A DNA stretch of 64,000 nucleotides, from positions 32,001-96,000 of the IMG/VR virus record IMGVR_UViG_3300042564_002372. One strand, written 5' to 3'. Position 1 is the first letter of the stretch. Each line of letters opens with the position of its first letter. Below are positions 50,920-61,617 of this stretch, in pieces. This stretch comes from a virus. The position numbers and the translations under genes are program-made. Below the pieces are notes generated by a model that searched no databases, had not been told where the DNA came from, and saw nothing but the letters and a program-made list of their open reading frames with translations.

Positions 50920-53514
50920 TTATTTCTTATCGTTTTTAGATGCTCTATTTGAAGCATTTATTTTAGCCACTTCAACATCATTCTTCATATTCTCTCTAGC
51001 AACATTTAGTTTTTCTTTTTCAAGTTGCATCTTCTGCATAGCTTGAGTGTTTTTAGATTGAATATCCTGCATCTTTAATTGATAATCCTGAGCTGCTTTT
51101 GACTGTTGCATAGATAGATTTGAAATCTCTAATATATCAGGAGTTCCTGATTCATCAACATCAGCTGTTGCTGCTTCGCCTCTTGCCGCAGCATTAATAA
51201 GAGCTATTTCTTTCTTATTAATTCTATCAAGTTCTTTCTGATAGTTCTCATTGGCAAGTGCTTCTTGAGCTTGTTGTTGCTGAGCCTGTAGCTGAGCACC
51301 TGCAATTTGTTGTTGTTGCTCAAGCTGCTGCTGTTGCATTTGCATCTGCTGGTCTTGCATTTGCTGCTGACGATCTTTGAGATTTTTGAATGTCTTCTTC
51401 ATCTCTCTCATAGACTTAGTAGAATACAATTCTATTACATCATATAGTGTGCCACCATTCTGAATGACAGCCTGAGATAGCTGACGAAGCTCATTAAACA
51501 TTTGTGTATCTTCTGGTCTGTTAGTTACAAACACTTTAAGATCACGAAGCTTCAAATCATTACCATTTACTTGTATAAATGCAGATTCTCCTTCAGATGT
51601 AATGTATGATAATGTAGACATAGGTTTAGCACTTTCTACATATTGTGCAGCATCTACAATAGCTTGATATAACTGACCTAATACATACTCGTGTGCAATG
51701 AATAGGGGCTCTGTCTGAGCGTATGACTGACTGACAGCTGTGTTAACACCTGTGGCAGATTCGCTCGCTTGTACGGTGCCTAAACGCTGTCTAGAGATGC
51801 CTATCAGTTCCCAACATTCGCTCTTTAATTGGAGAGCAAGGTTATATCTAGACTGGATTTCACCAGTTCTTGTCAAGTCTATGTTTCTTGCAATAGTGGT
51901 GTTGGAGACAGCAGCCTTTGTATTCTCTGGACTGTCATCATCAAATATAATACCACGCTCTCTTGCTTCCATTTCCCATACATCTAGAGCATCTTGATCA
52001 TCTCCATCTTTTAGTCTAGGAACACGTCTAATATTTACAGAAGCTACATTACCAATTTCTTTTTCTAGTAGTTTGTAGAGCTGATTCATGCAAATGTTGT
52101 ACAACACCTGGAATGGCTTCATCAAATCCACTAATGATTTGGCTTCTGTGTTCTTCACCTCAAACGTAGTGCCTATAATAGGGCAATAGTTAAGGATTTT
52201 TAGAGGTTTGATGTGGTAGATGTCTGGACCAATCTTTGTTCCTTGATACCACTGGTTAATCCAGCCCCATTCAAGAGAGATTTGTGTAGGAATAGTGTTT
52301 GCCTTGTAGTTTTCATCAACAAGAACACTTTGCTCATTACCCATTTCATCTAAATAGGTGAGTTTACCAATTTTTCTCTTGCTAATCCAATATGCTCTAA
52401 CAACAACATATTTGTATCCAAATGTAGACACGTTTGTTGTTAGTCCTAAGAAGTCTTTTAGTCCATCATTGTTCTCCTTCATCTCACTTTCAATCATCAT
52501 TCTTGTCTGAAGGACAAGAGGATCAAATGTGTCGTATTGAATAGAGTCAATACCATCAGCAGCATTAGGATTACCAAGGTTGGATTCACGAACGTTGATA
52601 AGTCCGTAGTCTTGCAATGAGCTTCTTAGGTGATCAATCTCTTCTTTAGTGAGATCTGGGATAGATTCAATAATTTCAGAAAGTTCCATAACTTGCACAG
52701 TACCAGCAGCATACGCTCCTTGGTTTCTTCCTGTTGGATCAGAAATCCACTTTCTATCTGGCGTAGTGAGGAACCATGTATTCTTTGGGTTTGCCACCTC
52801 TATGTTGAATCCAAGCTTAGAGTTGTCTTCATAGATGTGATAGAACTCTCTAGCAGAAATAAGAAGATCTCTGAATGCATCCTCTGATTTTTCTTTCAGG
52901 TTGAATTCAGCTTTTTGACATGTAAGAATGTGATTAGCCCATTTCTCAGCTACAGAAGTGTAAGAATCTAGCTGATCCTTCACTTGCTCCATTGTCATTT
53001 GGTTAAGCTGTTCTTCGTCAATCTCTTGACCCTGCATAGCAAGCTTCTGCAATATGTTCTGTCTAGCTTGAGAAATAATAAACTCCTGAAGAACATCTGT
53101 TTTGAATTGTAGTTCTTCAGCTTGGCTATCATCATCAAATGCCTTTACACGAAATGTATCTGGACGCTTAGATATTTCACCTACAAGGTTATTGATGGGA
53201 GTAGTTACAATAGAATAATGCTTAACGTATGATGGCAAACCTAAATCTGCCTGAAGCATCTCTGTAAAAGATTTCACATCTGGCTCTTGATAAAAGTCTT
53301 CCATTCTCAGGATGCCTTTTACAAGGTCATAGTTTTTAACAAACGTGTCACGACTCTTCATATATTCCGCATACGACTTGTTTGCGAAATAATCCATCGT
53401 GTTTTTCACCCAACTCTCATCCCGCTTTTCTTTCTCTGTCTTGAACTGATCAGGGAAAATGTTAAGATAGGCATATCGTATGGTTGCGTCCTTTGTATAT
53501 CTAATGATTGCCAT
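50920..53514 (-). CDS. Portal protein
   Basis: 864 aa directly after the terminase; INNLVGEISKRP, GISRQRLG, Gln-rich C-terminal coil and DVDESGTPDILE. Confidence 0.85.
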   Translation of the reverse strand: MAIIRYTKDATIRYAYLNIFPDQFKTEKEKRDESWVKNTMDYFANKSYAEYMKSRDTFVKNYDLVKGILRMEDFYQEPDVKSFTEMLQADLGLPSYVKHYSIVTTPINNLVGEISKRPDTFRVKAFDDDSQAEELQFKTDVLQEFIISQARQNILQKLAMQGQEIDEEQLNQMTMEQVKDQLDSYTSVAEKWANHILTCQKAEFNLKEKSEDAFRDLLISAREFYHIYEDNSKLGFNIEVANPKNTWFLTTPDRKWISDPTGRNQGAYAAGTVQVMELSEIIESIPDLTKEEIDHLRSSLQDYGLINVRESNLGNPNAADGIDSIQYDTFDPLVLQTRMMIESEMKENNDGLKDFLGLTTNVSTFGYKYVVVRAYWISKRKIGKLTYLDEMGNEQSVLVDENYKANTIPTQISLEWGWINQWYQGTKIGPDIYHIKPLKILNYCPIIGTTFEVKNTEAKSLVDLMKPFQVLYNICMNQLYKLLEKEIGNVASVNIRRVPRLKDGDDQDALDVWEMEARERGIIFDDDSPENTKAAVSNTTIARNIDLTRTGEIQSRYNLALQLKSECWELIGISRQRLGTVQASESATGVNTAVSQSYAQTEPLFIAHEYVLGQLYQAIVDAAQYVESAKPMSTLSYITSEGESAFIQVNGNDLKLRDLKVFVTNRPEDTQMFNELRQLSQAVIQNGGTLYDVIELYSTKSMREMKKTFKNLKDRQQQMQDQQMQMQQQQLEQQQQIAGAQLQAQQQQAQEALANENYQKELDRINKKEIALINAAARGEAATADVDESGTPDILEISNLSMQQSKAAQDYQLKMQDIQSKNTQAMQKMQLEKEKLNVARENMKNDVEVAKINASNRASKNDKK

Positions 53515-55538
53515 TATGAAAATAATTTATTTTTCCTCGTATTGAACATATTTTTAGAGCTGCTGAACAGCTTCCCACTCTTTAACTTTTTTGAATATAA
53601 CGATTTAACTCGTTCATCACTAGTTCCTCCAATCTTTCCTAATATAGGGTCCATCTTAAGTGCCTGAGCTATAGCAAGTTCCGCTGCTACAATTCTATCG
53701 AAGTTTCCCTCATCGTTATATTGGATGATTTCTTCAAGAAGCATTGGGTCAAATATCTTACTCACCCCTGTAACTTCTTTAGTTATTTTACCATCATCAT
53801 CTTTCTCAGAATAAATAACATCGTCCATGTATCTTTTCAGACATGTATGTAGATAGTCAATTATTTTCTGAGCTGATCTGTGAATTCCATACTCTCGTTT
53901 CACAGTAGTGTTAGGAATCACTTCTAACAACCATTGTGGTTGTTTCTCTAGATAGTGTGCATCACCTTTGCTTTTCATGTATTCAATGAACGAAATGTCG
54001 TCATTCTCACAAAGAGCTCTAGCGTTGTAATATTTAATCAGTAATCTAGCCTGTTCTTCCCACGTTTCCTTCTTATCAGGTCTTGCACAATACGAAGCTA
54101 CGAACATATCCTGATATTTTTCACCAGTGAGATCGTGCATTCTCTTGTAAATATACACAGAACCTAGTGAAGTTGAATACTTTGCCTGTCCTTGTCTATA
54201 GGGGTCAACTCCTGCAACGTACAATCCATAGGGAGGATTCTCTATAGGAAACTCATATATCACTATAGGAGCATCCTTTCTATCTGTACTCTTGAGAGGA
54301 AAGTTTGTTATAGGCATGTTGTCTGTAAACTCATGTCCAATCTTTCCTTCGTCACTAAATAATATAACAGGTGTTCCTGTTCTTTCGTTCTGCAATAGTC
54401 TGATTTTCTGTCTTTTAGCAGCTTCTATATCAAAGATGTTGGTGTCTTCATTGAGGAATATGTCATCCACCTTCTGTGGATAGTACATCTTCTCTTTTAA
54501 ATAAGCCACTCTATCACCAGCCTTCTTTAATCTTTCTAAGTTATCGTTAGTGATTTTGTCAGCTTTCTCTTCATTAGACACTAACATCTTCACATTATGA
54601 AGCTCGCTAGTTTTTGGAGCATCTACATAAGCTCCTAACGTAGAATCTTCTTTGGCTTCCATTCTATATTTATTAGAAATGAATAGCCCATGCACACGCT
54701 TTGTATCCTCTTCGTTATTATATGTTAGGAAGTTGTAATTGTCAACATCAAACATCAATGACTTAGCATCCATAAAACGCTTCATATCACCGCCTGTACC
54801 TGTAAGAATTGGGGAACAGCCCCATCCAAATGGCGTTGTAAAACCAGGAACAGCAGCCTGTAAGCCTCTCAAGAAAGATCCTTTACCAATCTCATCAATA
54901 ATGAGCTTACGTGGCTTTGTACCAGCAATAGCTTCTTCGTTATTACCCTCATCTAAGTTACGAATAAGAATTTGAGAGAATGGTATTCTCTCTCCTCCCC
55001 TTGTCTTTATTCCTAACGTCACCTGATTCTTCCAATTATCCTCTACACGCTGCCATCTAAAGTATTCAGGAAGGAAGTTGAGGCCCTTATCAAGCTTATC
55101 TGTAATTAGTTTAATATCTGGAGCATTCAGGCCAGCAATAACGTTCTGTGAGTTCTCATCAAATGTGGCACCCCAAGCAATGTAACTTGCTTCAAGCACA
55201 GACTTAGCAAAACGTCTAATACCCAAAATGACCAACCCACGCTTCTCAGCATGGGCTCTGTCTATTTCATTTGTAACTAACCATTCATTGTCTCTCAGAG
55301 ATGGGTTTGCATATTTCTGATAGATTCGTCCTCTATCATCCATAACATCCACTTCTGTATGCCACAGATTCAAATGCCAATACAGAAAGGGGTTGATGAA
55401 CACACCATCCATCATAAATCCATCAAGACACAGCTTCTTATGAAAGTCAAAGAAGGGCTTGTATTCCTGTGATGTCTTATCAGGAAGGCGTGTTTGGTTA
55501 ATCAACCACTCACTGTATTTAACATTTTCTAGATTCAT
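53514..55538 (-). CDS. terL: Terminase large subunit
   Basis: 674 aa; Walker A-like ILGIRRFAKS, Walker B LIIDEIGK, TGTGG motif, RNase H-like VAGVDPY and GNFDRIV. Confidence 0.9.
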   Translation of the reverse strand: MNLENVKYSEWLINQTRLPDKTSQEYKPFFDFHKKLCLDGFMMDGVFINPFLYWHLNLWHTEVDVMDDRGRIYQKYANPSLRDNEWLVTNEIDRAHAEKRGLVILGIRRFAKSVLEASYIAWGATFDENSQNVIAGLNAPDIKLITDKLDKGLNFLPEYFRWQRVEDNWKNQVTLGIKTRGGERIPFSQILIRNLDEGNNEEAIAGTKPRKLIIDEIGKGSFLRGLQAAVPGFTTPFGWGCSPILTGTGGDMKRFMDAKSLMFDVDNYNFLTYNNEEDTKRVHGLFISNKYRMEAKEDSTLGAYVDAPKTSELHNVKMLVSNEEKADKITNDNLERLKKAGDRVAYLKEKMYYPQKVDDIFLNEDTNIFDIEAAKRQKIRLLQNERTGTPVILFSDEGKIGHEFTDNMPITNFPLKSTDRKDAPIVIYEFPIENPPYGLYVAGVDPYRQGQAKYSTSLGSVYIYKRMHDLTGEKYQDMFVASYCARPDKKETWEEQARLLIKYYNARALCENDDISFIEYMKSKGDAHYLEKQPQWLLEVIPNTTVKREYGIHRSAQKIIDYLHTCLKRYMDDVIYSEKDDDGKITKEVTGVSKIFDPMLLEEIIQYNDEGNFDRIVAAELAIAQALKMDPILGKIGGTSDERVKSLYSKKLKSGKLFSSSKNMFNTRKNKLFS

Positions 55539-57254: not shown

Positions 57255-57475
57255 ATATAAAACATCCTCCGTGAAAATAACAAATTTTATTATTTCTGTT
57301 TTTGAATCAAGGCCCCACCCAGGTGATGAGTTGTAAAGAAACCCCCCACCAAAATTTTCAAAATTTGGAAAAATGTTGTGTCAATGGGAGGGGAGGTTAC
57401 TTCCAGTTGCAACCCCACGCAGAGTTGGGGTAGTCGAGGGACTCCCCCTTAAACACACTTAACCAATCAAAAATC

Positions 57476-57853
57476 ATGTTACAACACTTAGCACCAACAA
57501 AATCAATTGAGGTAATTGGCACTCTTGCTGAAATCGTAGGAACTGGAGGTAAAGTATTCTACTCTCCAGGAAACTGGGATGGAGATAAGCGCATCTTCCT
57601 TGAACTAAGAACCGCTTCTGGACAGGAAGGTAGAATCTTCTGCTCACCTGCTGTGAGCAAGCACCTTCGTGAGAAGACCATGAAGCCATCTCAGTTGTTT
57701 GGAATGCCTGTCGCTCTTATCACTAGAGTTGATAAGACCAAAGGTTACACCGTTACTTTGCCTGGTTCTCAACTTGTGGAACTTGCAGTTCCAACTGAAG
57801 TTGAGACTTGGACTCAACCAGCAACATTAGAAGAAGTAGAGAGGGTTTCATAA
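57476..57853 (+). CDS. Hypothetical protein, first gene after the strand switch
   Basis: 125 aa; A-rich leader and its own terminator. Confidence 0.75.
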   Translation: MLQHLAPTKSIEVIGTLAEIVGTGGKVFYSPGNWDGDKRIFLELRTASGQEGRIFCSPAVSKHLREKTMKPSQLFGMPVALITRVDKTKGYTVTLPGSQLVELAVPTEVETWTQPATLEEVERVS

Positions 57854-57867
57854 CCCTCTTTTCTTCT
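57832..57867 (+). terminator. Intrinsic terminator
   Basis: AGAGGGTT-TCAT-AACCCTCT followed by TTTCTT, overlapping the stop codon. Confidence 0.65.
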
Positions 57868-57903
57868 CTATATACAGGGTGGGAGTAAAAACGTTTGGGT
57901 GGG

Positions 57904-58499
57904 CTAGTTACACAGAGATTGTATCTGTGCAAATCAGACATATATTATAAATACAATGAAGGGTTCTACGAGGCCAAGCATGTGGTAATGCGTTGTAATA
58001 TATATGGTGTGATCTGTGTAACTAGTTTATCCTTACTAAAGTACAACGAATGTAGGGTAATGTACAATTTAATAAAGTTTTACACGGGAAAACTAAAACT
58101 TCATGTTGTACTTTATCAAGAATTTGTTGAGTGAATAAGAGTAGGAGTGACACCACACACGTAATAATGACATGTTTTCGTAAGTGTCGTTTTTACTATT
58201 CACTATTTTATATAGCATTAACAAACAATTGTATGTGGCCACGTAGTGCCTTAATCCATCCGTGATGCATGTGTAAGCATGTAGGATGGACATACAATTT
58301 CAATGCACCATTCTCACTTCCCAAGGGTGAGCAGTTGTAATAGATGAAGCGTCAGCAAAATGGGTCAATGCAGAAATAATTTCACAGCGACATAACCAAT
58401 GGGTCATGCTGTAATTGTTTGCCTGTGACATAATCTATTACAATTGAGTGCAGAGGGATTTGGAGGGTCAGATGCTCCCGAGCAGGTGCAAGGCCTGCA
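57904..58499 (+). ncRNA. Cluster of structured RNA-like domains (one large ncRNA or several small ones)
   Basis: Five consecutive elements, each closed by a long stem, several with G-U pairs that work only on the plus strand; no credible ORF. See findings. Confidence 0.6.
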
Positions 58500-58531
58500 T
58501 TTATTATTTAATCATTTAAACGCACAACAAC

Positions 58532-58711
58532 ATGTTAAAATCAATTTTAATTTTCTTGTTTCCTAAGACTATTGCTTCTATTAAGAAGGATAGTATTAAT
58601 GAATATCTCTGTAATCATGAAGATCCAGAATTTGATCAAATGCAGGCTGATTATTATGAGATGATGAGTATTGAACATCAACAATGGCTAGAACAAGATG
58701 AAAACATTTAA
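58532..58711 (+). CDS. Hypothetical 59-aa protein (not in the ORF track)
   Basis: MLKSILIFLFPKTIASIKK...; AAACGCACAACAAC leader; overlaps the next gene. Confidence 0.55.
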   Translation: MLKSILIFLFPKTIASIKKDSINEYLCNHEDPEFDQMQADYYEMMSIEHQQWLEQDENI

Positions 58712-58988
58712 TGATTTAGTCTTTATAGATGAGATTATGTATGGCGACTTAAAATGGAGTCGCTCATACATGATATTTGATAATGGATATGGTATATCTG
58801 TTGTAAAAGGTCCTCATAGTTATGGAGGTAAATTAGGCTTATATGAAATTGCTGTCTTAGATAATGATGGCTACATCACTTATGAAACACCTATAACTGA
58901 TGATGTAATAGGCTTTCTTAAGCCTGAAGATGTTAGTAAACACATGATTGAAATTCAAGAATTACCAATTGCACACAAAAACACATAA
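58698..58988 (+). CDS. Hypothetical phage protein
   Basis: 96 aa; FDNGYGISVV...SYGGKLGLYEIAVL resembles a widespread small phage protein family. Confidence 0.7.
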   Translation: MKTFNDLVFIDEIMYGDLKWSRSYMIFDNGYGISVVKGPHSYGGKLGLYEIAVLDNDGYITYETPITDDVIGFLKPEDVSKHMIEIQELPIAHKNT

Positions 58989-58993
58989 AACGA

Positions 58994-59299
58994 ATGAACA
59001 CATTAAAAGTAGTTAGGGCTATAGCAGTGGGAACTGCTCTCCTTGCAGGAATTCTATCTGTTCTCATTATTATGTTTGCTGGAACAGCACTTGAGATGGG
59101 TGTAACAGATGAACAGTTCTTATTCACTGTCATCATCTTTTTCATTTCCACATTATATTGGTTGGCTGTTGATGCTCTTATTAGAAGAGATGAGGCTGAT
59201 ACAGAAGCAATGAAGAAGATTCATCAAACAACATTCAATCAGGCTGCTGTATTGATGATTCTTTCTATTATTGGAACACTTTCTCTGGTATTCTTATGA
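58994..59299 (+). CDS. Membrane protein (about 3 TM segments)
   Basis: 101 aa with three hydrophobic stretches. Confidence 0.7.
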   Translation: MNTLKVVRAIAVGTALLAGILSVLIIMFAGTALEMGVTDEQFLFTVIIFFISTLYWLAVDALIRRDEADTEAMKKIHQTTFNQAAVLMILSIIGTLSLVFL

Positions 59300-60867: not shown

Positions 60868-61011
60868 ATGAGCGCATTTACAGAGGAAGAAATAAACACT
60901 CTCATAGAATTGTGGCGTGATAAGCTTACAATCAAAGAGATGGCATGGACAATGAAAAAGAAGCCTACACAAGTGTATTATCAGCTTAAGAAGCGTTCAT
61001 TAGTAGGGTAA
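60868..61011 (+). CDS. 47-aa helix-turn-helix microprotein (not in the ORF track)
   Basis: MSAFTEEEINTLIELWRDKLTIKEMAWTMKKKPTQVYYQLKK matches a Myb/GcrA-like HTH pattern. Confidence 0.6.
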   Translation: MSAFTEEEINTLIELWRDKLTIKEMAWTMKKKPTQVYYQLKKRSLVG

Positions 61012-61066
61012 AATAGATAGGGTTTGATGTTAATCTAAGTCGCCAGTGCTTTCCAGTGGCAAATTT

Positions 61067-61203
61067 AGTCAGGTGGCGGAAAGTGTGCCCTGTTATTACG
61101 GGAAGTACATAGGAAGACGCTAATCACGGAAACCTAGTGAGGTAGTGAACGCAAGTGAAAGATGTCTGCGGATATCATGCATGTTCGAATCATGCCCTGA
61201 CTA
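61067..61203 (+). ncRNA. tRNA-like RNA 1 (137 nt, no canonical anticodon)
   Basis: Acceptor stem AGTCAGG/CCTGACT+A, TGGCGGAA D-arm start, T-arm GCATG-TTCGAAT-CATGC; expanded interior. Confidence 0.7.
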
Positions 61204-61219
61204 CTAAAAATTAAAAGTT

Positions 61220-61321
61220 ATGAATAAAGAAGAAATTAAAGAATGGATTGACAGATGGTCAAAACTAGAACCATCCCCTAAAAGGGATGCTATAATTAAG
61301 ATTTGGTCTAGGCTTCTGTAA
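61220..61321 (+). CDS. 33-aa microprotein between the two tRNA-like RNAs
   Basis: MNKEEIKEWIDRWSKLEPSPKRDAIIKIWSRLL; A-rich leader. Confidence 0.45.
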   Translation: MNKEEIKEWIDRWSKLEPSPKRDAIIKIWSRLL

Positions 61322-61327
61322 TTAAAT

Positions 61328-61436
61328 AGTCAGGTGGCGGAATTGGTAACGCACATACAACGAAGGGTGTGTACAGCCCAACCATAAAGAGAGTTGTATG
61401 GTGGTATAAATGTGGGTTCGAATCCTACTCTGACTA
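61328..61436 (+). ncRNA. tRNA-like RNA 2 (109 nt, no canonical anticodon)
   Basis: AGTCAGG/TCTGACT+A, GCG-GAATTGGTAA-CGC D-arm, T-arm GTGGG-TTCGAAT-CCTAC; 8-nt purine-rich loop in place of the anticodon loop; long variable arm. Confidence 0.7.
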
Positions 61437-61455
61437 CACACTAAAAACAAAACAC

Positions 61456-61617
61456 ATGGAACTACTAATTAGCATACTAATTGTCACCAGCATTTCTACA
61501 TTCATTGCTGTATTTTGGATAAAAGGCATAAACGACATGCATGAAAATTATCCTGATTACAAAGGAGAAGATTTGTTTGATGAAGATTTGAATAAAAATA
61601 AACAAACAAACACATGA
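61456..61617 (+). CDS. Small single-TM protein
   Basis: MELLISILIVTSISTFIAVFW...YPDYKGEDLF; the ORF-track start at 61369 lies inside the tRNA-like RNA. Confidence 0.65.
   Translation: MELLISILIVTSISTFIAVFWIKGINDMHENYPDYKGEDLFDEDLNKNKQTNT

Follow-up and report, generated by a model that had tools for sequence, protein, structure and literature searches.

What is encoded in the roughly 600 nucleotides (nt) of a gene-dense lake phage genome in which long inverted repeats follow one another and genes seem to be missing? The stretch of DNA analysed (the window) is 64,000 nt long and represents bases 32001-96000 of the IMG/VR virus record IMGVR_UViG_3300042564_002372, which is 109,827 bp in length and 95% complete by CheckV. 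The block in question occupies window positions 57854-58531 (678 nt). An earlier note, made from the letters alone, divided it into five stem-closed elements (here elements 1 to 5) and suggested a large phage non-coding RNA or an array of small RNAs, possibly ribozymes. We conclude that the block is probably an RNA island of three independent units, of which the last, element 5, would be a variant of the twister ribozyme that processes a single transcript.

The stems quoted in the earlier note were all found by direct reading of the sequence. Element 1 is enclosed by an outer stem of CTAGTTACACAGA (57904-57916) and TCTGTGTAACTAG (58013-58025), element 2 by AAAGTACAAC (58038-58047) and GTTGTACTTT (58105-58114), and element 3 has the stem AGTGAAT (58130-58136) and ATTCACT (58198-58204). 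The closing stems are AATTGTATG (58227-58235) with CATACAATT (58291-58299) for element 4 and TGCAC (58304-58308) with GTGCA (58448-58452) for element 5. Folding is better than that of dinucleotide shuffles: the minimum free energy of the plus strand at 57860-58530 is -192.5 kcal/mol versus -163.9 ± 6.6 kcal/mol (z -4.35; 0 of 20 shuffles were as good), and z values for elements 1 to 5 are -3.39, -1.89, -2.45, -3.34 and -2.61. By fold energy, the inverted repeats of the block are real. The minus strand of the same region reaches -165.5 kcal/mol (z -3.67), with similar values element by element, and thus the strand is not set by energy alone. Compensatory and G-U changes, seen both in the element-5 family and in element 1, point instead to selection at the RNA level on the plus strand. 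The element-3 stem with four G-U pairs, which had been offered as a sign of such selection, is not conserved.

The block is non-coding, as had been proposed, in that no conserved open reading frame (ORF) was identified. Only near-identical relatives retain the ORF of 79 amino acids (aa) at 57895-58134, and no ORF of at least 25 aa is present there in four relatives. Rfam, including the GOLLD, ROOL and ribozyme models, gave no match to the block; a search of 57700-58700 at E ≤ 10 returned snoRNA and miRNA matches at chance level only. Every element occurs once in the 109.8-kb genome, with a single element-5 frame, unlike a miniature inverted-repeat transposable element, of which several copies per genome with common terminal inverted repeats would be expected. 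Matches of the cargo (the insert of element 5, see below) and of the other elements to possible antisense targets in the phage's own genome were limited to chance 11-12-mers.

Can any of the elements be assigned to a class? The earlier note recognised none by eye, but element 5 does match one by architecture, and its guess of a ribozyme appears to have been well placed: the order of paired and unpaired segments is of the twister type. Helices and loops are named accordingly, all on the plus strand.

58302-58458, plus strand: element 5, twister-like ribozyme cassette (covariance model, covariation and an empty site)
58301-58302, plus strand: predicted self-cleavage site, C58301-A58302 (from twister architecture)
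58302-58303, plus strand: AA, invariant
58304-58308 with 58448-58452, plus strand: P2 (covariation)
58309-58312, plus strand: L2 (alignment)
58313-58317 with 58327-58331, plus strand: P4 (covariation)
58318-58326, plus strand: L4, TTCCCAAGG (alignment)
58332-58341 with 58437-58446, plus strand: P5, 14 bp in the window copy
58342-58436, plus strand: cargo, the P5 insert, hypervariable
58453, plus strand: putative catalytic G, G58453 (twister match)
58454-58457 with 58320-58323, plus strand: pseudoknot T1, AGGG with CCCA (twister match)

Element 5 belongs to a large family. A 20-mer of its 3' frame, degenerate at three positions, was found on more than 119 contigs of IMG/VR; in a set of 185,579 species genomes it turned up on only 6 contigs, mostly short contigs of metagenome-assembled genomes (MAGs). 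The 3' word has at least 132 occurrences, and 116 of 132 have the 5' frame too. Among 70 distinct full copies, a nearly fixed frame surrounds an insert of 16-177 nt. The inserts form 60 unrelated clusters, have no match to the rest of the island, and fold mildly better than shuffles (mean z -1.1). A covariance model (R1) built from an alignment of 53 distinct copies scores the window copy at 100.3 bits (E 1.6e-23) and identifies no other copy in the window.

Covariation was measured on the same 53 copies. P4 has double changes at 5 of 5 pairs, with pairing in 99.6% of its cells; in P2 every cell is paired (100%) and 2 pairs covary, and the base of P5 is 97.5% paired. Over the whole element 89.7% of cells are paired, compared to 31-51% with slid partners, and 0 of 500 shuffles reach the observed score. 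The AA after the predicted cut is invariant (53/53), as is G-AGGG, and the CCC/GGG pairs of T1 are CG in 52-53 of 53 copies. A second, candidate pseudoknot, T2, between L2 and L4 is 99.1% compatible (CG 45, UG 6, UA 1), including a UC/GA variant.

The layout of the twister class has been described (PMC5408937), and the sequence of the env22 twister is in print (PMC6101554). Manual identification of natural twisters has relied on an 'NA' cut site, an 'NC' in L2, a general-acid A and a general-base G (PMC11662667); all of these are present in element 5. Its fixed, unpaired bases correspond to those of the class position by position: N|A-A and then P2 come behind an AU-rich P1 strand, the L4 loop has the form U-CCNA-A-GN, and G with A(G/A)GG adjoins the P2 3' strand. 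We file element 5 as a putative uncatalogued phage variant of twister, presumed from its architecture to work like one, since P1 is dispensable in the env22 twister (PMC6101554) and natural twisters tolerate many imperfections and have highly variable auxiliary stems (PMC11662667). It is termed a variant because the Rfam twister models fail to detect it.

Two other features of the family were seen. In a split form (L003:3325-3720, L036, L077, L043, L060 and about 20 other loci; locus labels are ours), an insert of 90-190 nt lies inside L4, after the 5' strands of P2 and P4 and before the L4 loop and 3' half. It begins with GTGGATATAAAGACTTC and ends with TTAATCAG(C); these ends are conserved, and about a quarter of element-5 copies are of this form. 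In three other copies (L090:10116-10253, L117:4447-4585, L113:12532-12687) the cargo ends with a GGTTCAAATCC or GGTTCAAGTCC hairpin resembling a transfer RNA (tRNA) T arm, directly before the P5 3' strand, and these cargos look partly tRNA-like.

Copies of element 5 lie in ORF-free islands (median 694 nt; 678 nt in the window) and are co-oriented with the flanking ORFs, upstream in 72 of 86 cases and downstream in 80 of 86. No tight link of family members to true tRNAs was found at 60 loci. Phage transfer-messenger RNA genes, detected by Rfam and/or ARAGORN, occur a few kb from twister-like copies at L130:303-732, L053:7798-8271 and L058:887-1274.

How does element 5 relate to the rest of the block? 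One clue is an empty site. At L045:452-495, element 4 is joined directly to the hairpins that close the block, and the window's 22 nt on each side of 58302-58457 are identical to this site over 44 of 44 positions. Thus, the difference between the two is exactly the ribozyme core: it starts after the predicted cut and ends at the last base of the core. Since L045 lacks exactly 58302-58457, one edge of the cassette falls at the predicted cut site and the other where T1 ends. This is one clean example, and the module switch at 58302 is also seen in other relatives and in contigs from RNA libraries. Such cassette behaviour fits a P1 that is weak and depends on context.

It is conceivable, though quite unlikely, that the twister and its cargo form a mobile cassette with DNA boundaries set at the RNA level. 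If so, the next ribozyme in tandem arrays would cut 2 nt past 58457, and excised RNAs with 5'-OH and cyclic-phosphate ends could undergo ligation or circularisation and return as copies in phage DNA. Such elements would resemble the retrozymes of plants, in DNA phages, and would explain the spread of unrelated cargo between phages.

Is the remainder of the block one RNA or several? Relatives were gathered from IMG/VR and JGI metagenomes via flanking proteins and exact conserved words. Across the aligned relatives, modules come, go and are exchanged independently of one another. Elements 1-3, however, form a constant set: wherever they were identified, in about 35 lake-phage contigs, all three are there with order and spacing unchanged. 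Some contigs have element 4 directly behind this set; in L019, L020 and L014, elements 3 and 4 are separated by a small ORF that has its own terminator. The L020 island is longer by ~520 nt of further folded modules, among them another copy of the element-5 frame. Because modules vary independently, with ORFs between them, an array fits and one co-folding large RNA does not. The block is a mosaic of independent modules, and of the two possibilities first raised for it, the array of small RNAs or ribozymes is supported and the single large non-coding RNA is not. Assembled metatranscriptome contigs from three studies carry relatives of elements 1-5. These give a weak hint of transcription, because DNA can contaminate such libraries and the contigs show no RNA ends.

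Elements 1-4 are as follows.

57904-58025, plus strand: element 1; a 13-bp outer stem leads to a junction (small hairpin, fixed bases) and on to an inner stem of 12-13 bp whose tip varies (z -3.39, RNAalifold)
58038-58114, plus strand: element 2; core at 58059-58114, inner hairpin AAGTTTTA/TAAAACTT kept, outer stem ambiguous (alignment)
58130-58204, plus strand: element 3; variable arm that forms a hairpin only here and in the phage's nearest kin (z -2.45)
58227-58299, plus strand: element 4; 73-nt three-way junction that recurs in other phage islands (z -3.34)

The covariation that the earlier note had asked for was identified in element 1, the element-5 family and the small hairpin of element 4. 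From six sequences of element 1, RNAalifold derives 28 pairs, and compensatory double changes occur at 6 of these. In distant variants, both the outer and the inner stem are rebuilt from other sequence around fixed junction bases. A tip insertion of 34 nt (~57955-57988) is present only in the window, L019 and L145.

The core of element 2 (58059-58114, ~55 nt) is almost invariant in 26 distinct relatives, with flanks that differ by about 20%; covariation is uninformative in a core so nearly invariant. There is no third-position or synonymous-type variation in the core, so we infer that the constraint is on nucleotides rather than on a peptide. Exact core words recur, one of 28 nt on 29 metagenome contigs and one of 32 nt on 7 viral contigs. 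As a conserved structure, the outer stem of element 2 was rejected: in 22 of 26 relatives an A faces a C in it, and other segments compete for pairing with its 3' strand. Also rejected are the stems of element 3, which are broken or replaced in L019, L017, L014 and others. Invariant motifs flank this element (GAGTAGGAGTG at 58139-58149 and TATATAGCATTAA at 58209-58221).

Element 4 was identified in L020, L045, L077, L154, L144, L138, L155, L156 and L153, and in partial form in L130 and L068. It is frequently directly upstream of a twister-like copy and also occurs in more distant contigs (L045, L077, L130). Its small hairpin covaries (GGC/GCC, GGT/ACC, GAC/GTC), and the remainder is nearly invariant among full copies. 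None of elements 1-4 matches GOLLD, ROOL, another large non-coding RNA or a known self-cleaving class in Rfam (whole window at gathering thresholds; 57700-58700 at E ≤ 10). Elements 1-3 and element 4 are uncatalogued RNA families.

Where might such an RNA begin and end? The block is bracketed by terminator-like hairpins on the plus strand.

57838-57861, plus strand: terminator-like hairpin; 10 pairs, 4 of them GC, T-rich tail, spanning the stop codon (57851-57853) of a 125-aa ORF
57862-57903, plus strand: leader with two GGGTGGG repeats (57877-57883 and 57897-57903), conserved
58462-58498, plus strand: two closing hairpins; the second (58482-58498) with a T-rich run, an intrinsic-terminator-like end (hairpin scan)

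The hairpin at the upstream edge is present too in relatives with a different upstream ORF. The leader is 91-98% identical in L019 and L020 despite a different upstream ORF, and may possibly hold a promoter or mark where the RNA unit starts. No sigma-70-like site was found on its plus strand, and neither a leader motif nor a shared phage promoter motif around TATATA(C/G) is repeated elsewhere in the genome. The two GGGTGGG repeats are 13 nt apart; another such pair occurs, at a different place, in the divergent element-1 variant of L146, L158 and L159. These pairs could be a G-quadruplex or a protein-binding motif. The closing hairpins are kept in L020, L045, L017, L014 and L090, and only the loop changes.

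From these features we propose the following. Unit A (elements 1-3, ~57900-58222) would be an RNA of about 320 nt, confined to one lake-phage clade and built around the nearly invariant ~55-nt core. Unit B (element 4) would be a folded module of 73 nt that travels from one island to another, and unit C (element 5) a phage-specific variant of the type-P1 twister, without P3 and with a long P5 that carries cargo. The island would be transcribed as one RNA, either together with the plus-strand genes or from the leader at 57862-57903, and would end at the terminator at 58482-58498. The ribozyme would fold via P2, P4, the CCCA/AGGG pseudoknot and the two-base CC/GG pseudoknot, and cut between C58301 and A58302, 2 nt past the closing stem of element 4. 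The upstream RNAs would be freed with a 2',3'-cyclic phosphate end, and the remaining RNA of ribozyme and cargo, ~200 nt with a 5'-OH, would extend to the terminator. By this cut the phage would set the ends of its small RNAs without host nucleases.

Several observations weigh against a cutting twister. Immediately before the cut, 65 of 70 copies have U, 4 have C, as does the window copy, and 1 has A. T1 never varies, so this pairing is beyond the reach of covariation. The column of L2 assigned to T2 (column 17) also pairs with the base 5' of the P2 3' strand (CG 46, UA 6, UG 1; 6 double changes), as a fifth P2 pair would. P1 is weak: 54.7% of cells pair in the canonical register, the best-helix length is 4.1 versus 3.87 in a shuffled-partner control, and the window copy has about 4 bp with a mismatch. 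P1 is thus not supported as a conserved helix, although the canonical register is the commonest (13 of 70 copies). RF03160 (twister-P1) and all other Rfam models give no match to element 5, even at E ≤ 10 on a 151-nt copy with a short insert, and RF03160 finds nothing in the whole genome. The base of P5 (CAGTTGTA/TACAACTG) and many unpaired bases are highly conserved in sequence beyond the needs of a twister, and would suit a protein-binding scaffold too. Together with the C before the cut, the weak P1, the Rfam results and the large L4 insert in a quarter of copies, this conservation would be explained if element 5 were twister-shaped and non-cutting, a stable scaffold or protein-binding frame that displays the P5 insert, like the tRNA-shaped RNAs 3 kb downstream. 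We nevertheless regard such a scaffold as unlikely. The twister active-site bases (AA, the G after P2, AGGG/CCCA and NC/GN) are all invariant over more than 50 divergent copies. In addition, env22 can do without P1 (PMC6101554), and imperfections are widely tolerated in natural twisters (PMC11662667).

Other explanations concern the block as a whole. Contiguous domains between two terminator-like hairpins, a strong total fold and the constant linkage of elements 1-3 are what one large ornate RNA in the manner of GOLLD or ROOL would show, with five domains acting together. This is distinctly improbable, given that close relatives lack elements 4 and 5, have others in their place or carry them in duplicate, that protein-coding ORFs separate elements 3 and 4 in three of these, that L045 lacks exactly the element-5 cassette, and that no large RNA in Rfam matches. 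The inverted repeats might instead act as DNA, in replication origins, packaging or recombination, where the gene arms join: the block is ~600 bp past the strand switch (57255-57475) and the turn in GC skew, the minus strand folds about as well relative to shuffles, and presence or absence is cassette-like. Yet the kept pairs include G-U and U-G, which are A-C on the opposite strand, the plus strand is more stable by 27 kcal/mol, and the element-5 family is asymmetric and co-oriented with its neighbours in many unrelated contigs, usually far from a strand switch; a DNA role is very improbable. Least credible are hidden small protein genes, such as the 79-aa ORF or a 24-aa ORF that starts at 58061. 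ORFs of 44-79 aa do exist in the window block, and many relatives keep an open frame across the element-2 core. However, ORF starts, ends and lengths vary among relatives (and four have none of at least 25 aa), indel lengths are not divisible by three (34 nt for the tip insert), the element-2 core lacks third-position variation, and there are no Pfam matches. The reading of three independent units with a terminal twister variant is retained below.

Genes on the minus-strand arm of the genome that carries the island include those for a crAss-type terminase (53514-55538), a portal protein (50920-53514) and giant virion proteins, the largest with 4125 aa. By terminase, the closest isolate is Leptolyngbya phage Lbo-JY46 (40% identity), followed by Cellulophaga and gut crAss-like phages. 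The DNA runs that contain the block are lake-water metagenomes. Cumulative GC skew turns at the strand switch. The first plus-strand ORF (57476-57853, 125 aa) is directly before the block; it belongs to no known family and has no relatives among the viral contigs. Searches of the small flanking ORFs against PHROGs and Pfam returned nothing except phrog_4074 (unknown function), and blastn of 57400-59000 against public phage records gave no match. Only one long contig from a prokaryote genome contains the twister-like 20-mer (L170, JBBAJS010000010.1, 111,986 bp, in a Sediminibacterium MAG bin). It is phage-sized, and may be a mis-binned relative or a hint of a Bacteroidota host.

Two more ORF-free gaps of ~525 nt were identified in this genome, C1:7648-8172 (outside the window) and 60973-61501 in the window. 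The latter contains tRNA-like RNAs, including the sole Rfam match in the window at gathering thresholds (61328-61436, plus strand). Matches to the Rfam tRNA model at ~40 bits, with a 40-90-nt insert in the anticodon/variable region, were found there and at L112:940-1062, L048:10332-10489, L154:1279-1403 and L020:7963-8066. ARAGORN called no tRNA in the window.

What would such an island mean? The role of bacterial and phage twisters has been an open question since 2014. Element 5 is at the end of a string of RNAs, 2 nt past the stem of element 4 and before a terminator, and this placement suggests a concrete candidate job: production of defined RNA ends without host enzymes. The family is large and essentially restricted to phages, and counts of natural twisters miss it because the standard Rfam models are blind to it. 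A nearly fixed frame with an unrelated insert in almost every copy, and tRNA-shaped RNAs of similar design in the same genome, suggest that lake phages express diverse, fast-changing small RNAs from self-processing scaffolds.

How does the island compare with known systems? Element 5 shares the order of elements of the type-P1 twister (RF03160): P1 (weak in element 5), N|A-A, P2, a putative two-base pseudoknot strand, P4 and its loop, P5, the P2 3' strand, G, A(G/A)GG and the P1 3' strand. The L4 loop is U-U-CCCA-A-GG in element 5 and U-CCUA-A-GC in env22, with the extra U in element 5. The two-base pseudoknot would be CC/GG instead of the GC/GC of twister. P3 is absent, as in the rice twister, and its place is taken by a short junction. 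Unlike twister, element 5 has a covarying fifth pair that can extend P2, a P1 that is often negligible, and a long P5 of at least 10 fixed bp, conserved in sequence at its base, with an unrelated insert of 16-177 nt. The second insert of 90-190 nt in L4 of the split form is not a described twister feature, and the Rfam twister models do not match.

GOLLD and ROOL are long, gene-free and highly structured, as is the block; its domains, however, are modules that shuffle independently, with no Rfam match. The theta ribozymes of gut phages, as outlined in PMC10879173, are a hepatitis delta virus-like class beside suppressor tRNAs. They too tie a phage ribozyme to phage small RNAs, whereas element 5 has no true tRNA adjoining, comes from a lake phage, and has a processing role that is only proposed here.

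Self-cleaving ribozymes cluster near phage genes, and pistol, hatchet and twister-sister were found in that way (PMC10085705). Like other twisters, element 5 is found in phage DNA with further ribozymes nearby. At L022:5635-5767, on the plus strand, a Hatchet ribozyme (RF02678, 78 bits) lies ~1 kb upstream of the twister-like copy at L022:6724-6884, which fits this known clustering. As in those ribozyme-rich neighbourhoods, several unrelated structured RNAs adjoin the twister-type element. Elements 1-4 differ in that they match no known self-cleaving class, and they sit in the kind of neighbourhood that has yielded new ribozyme classes before.

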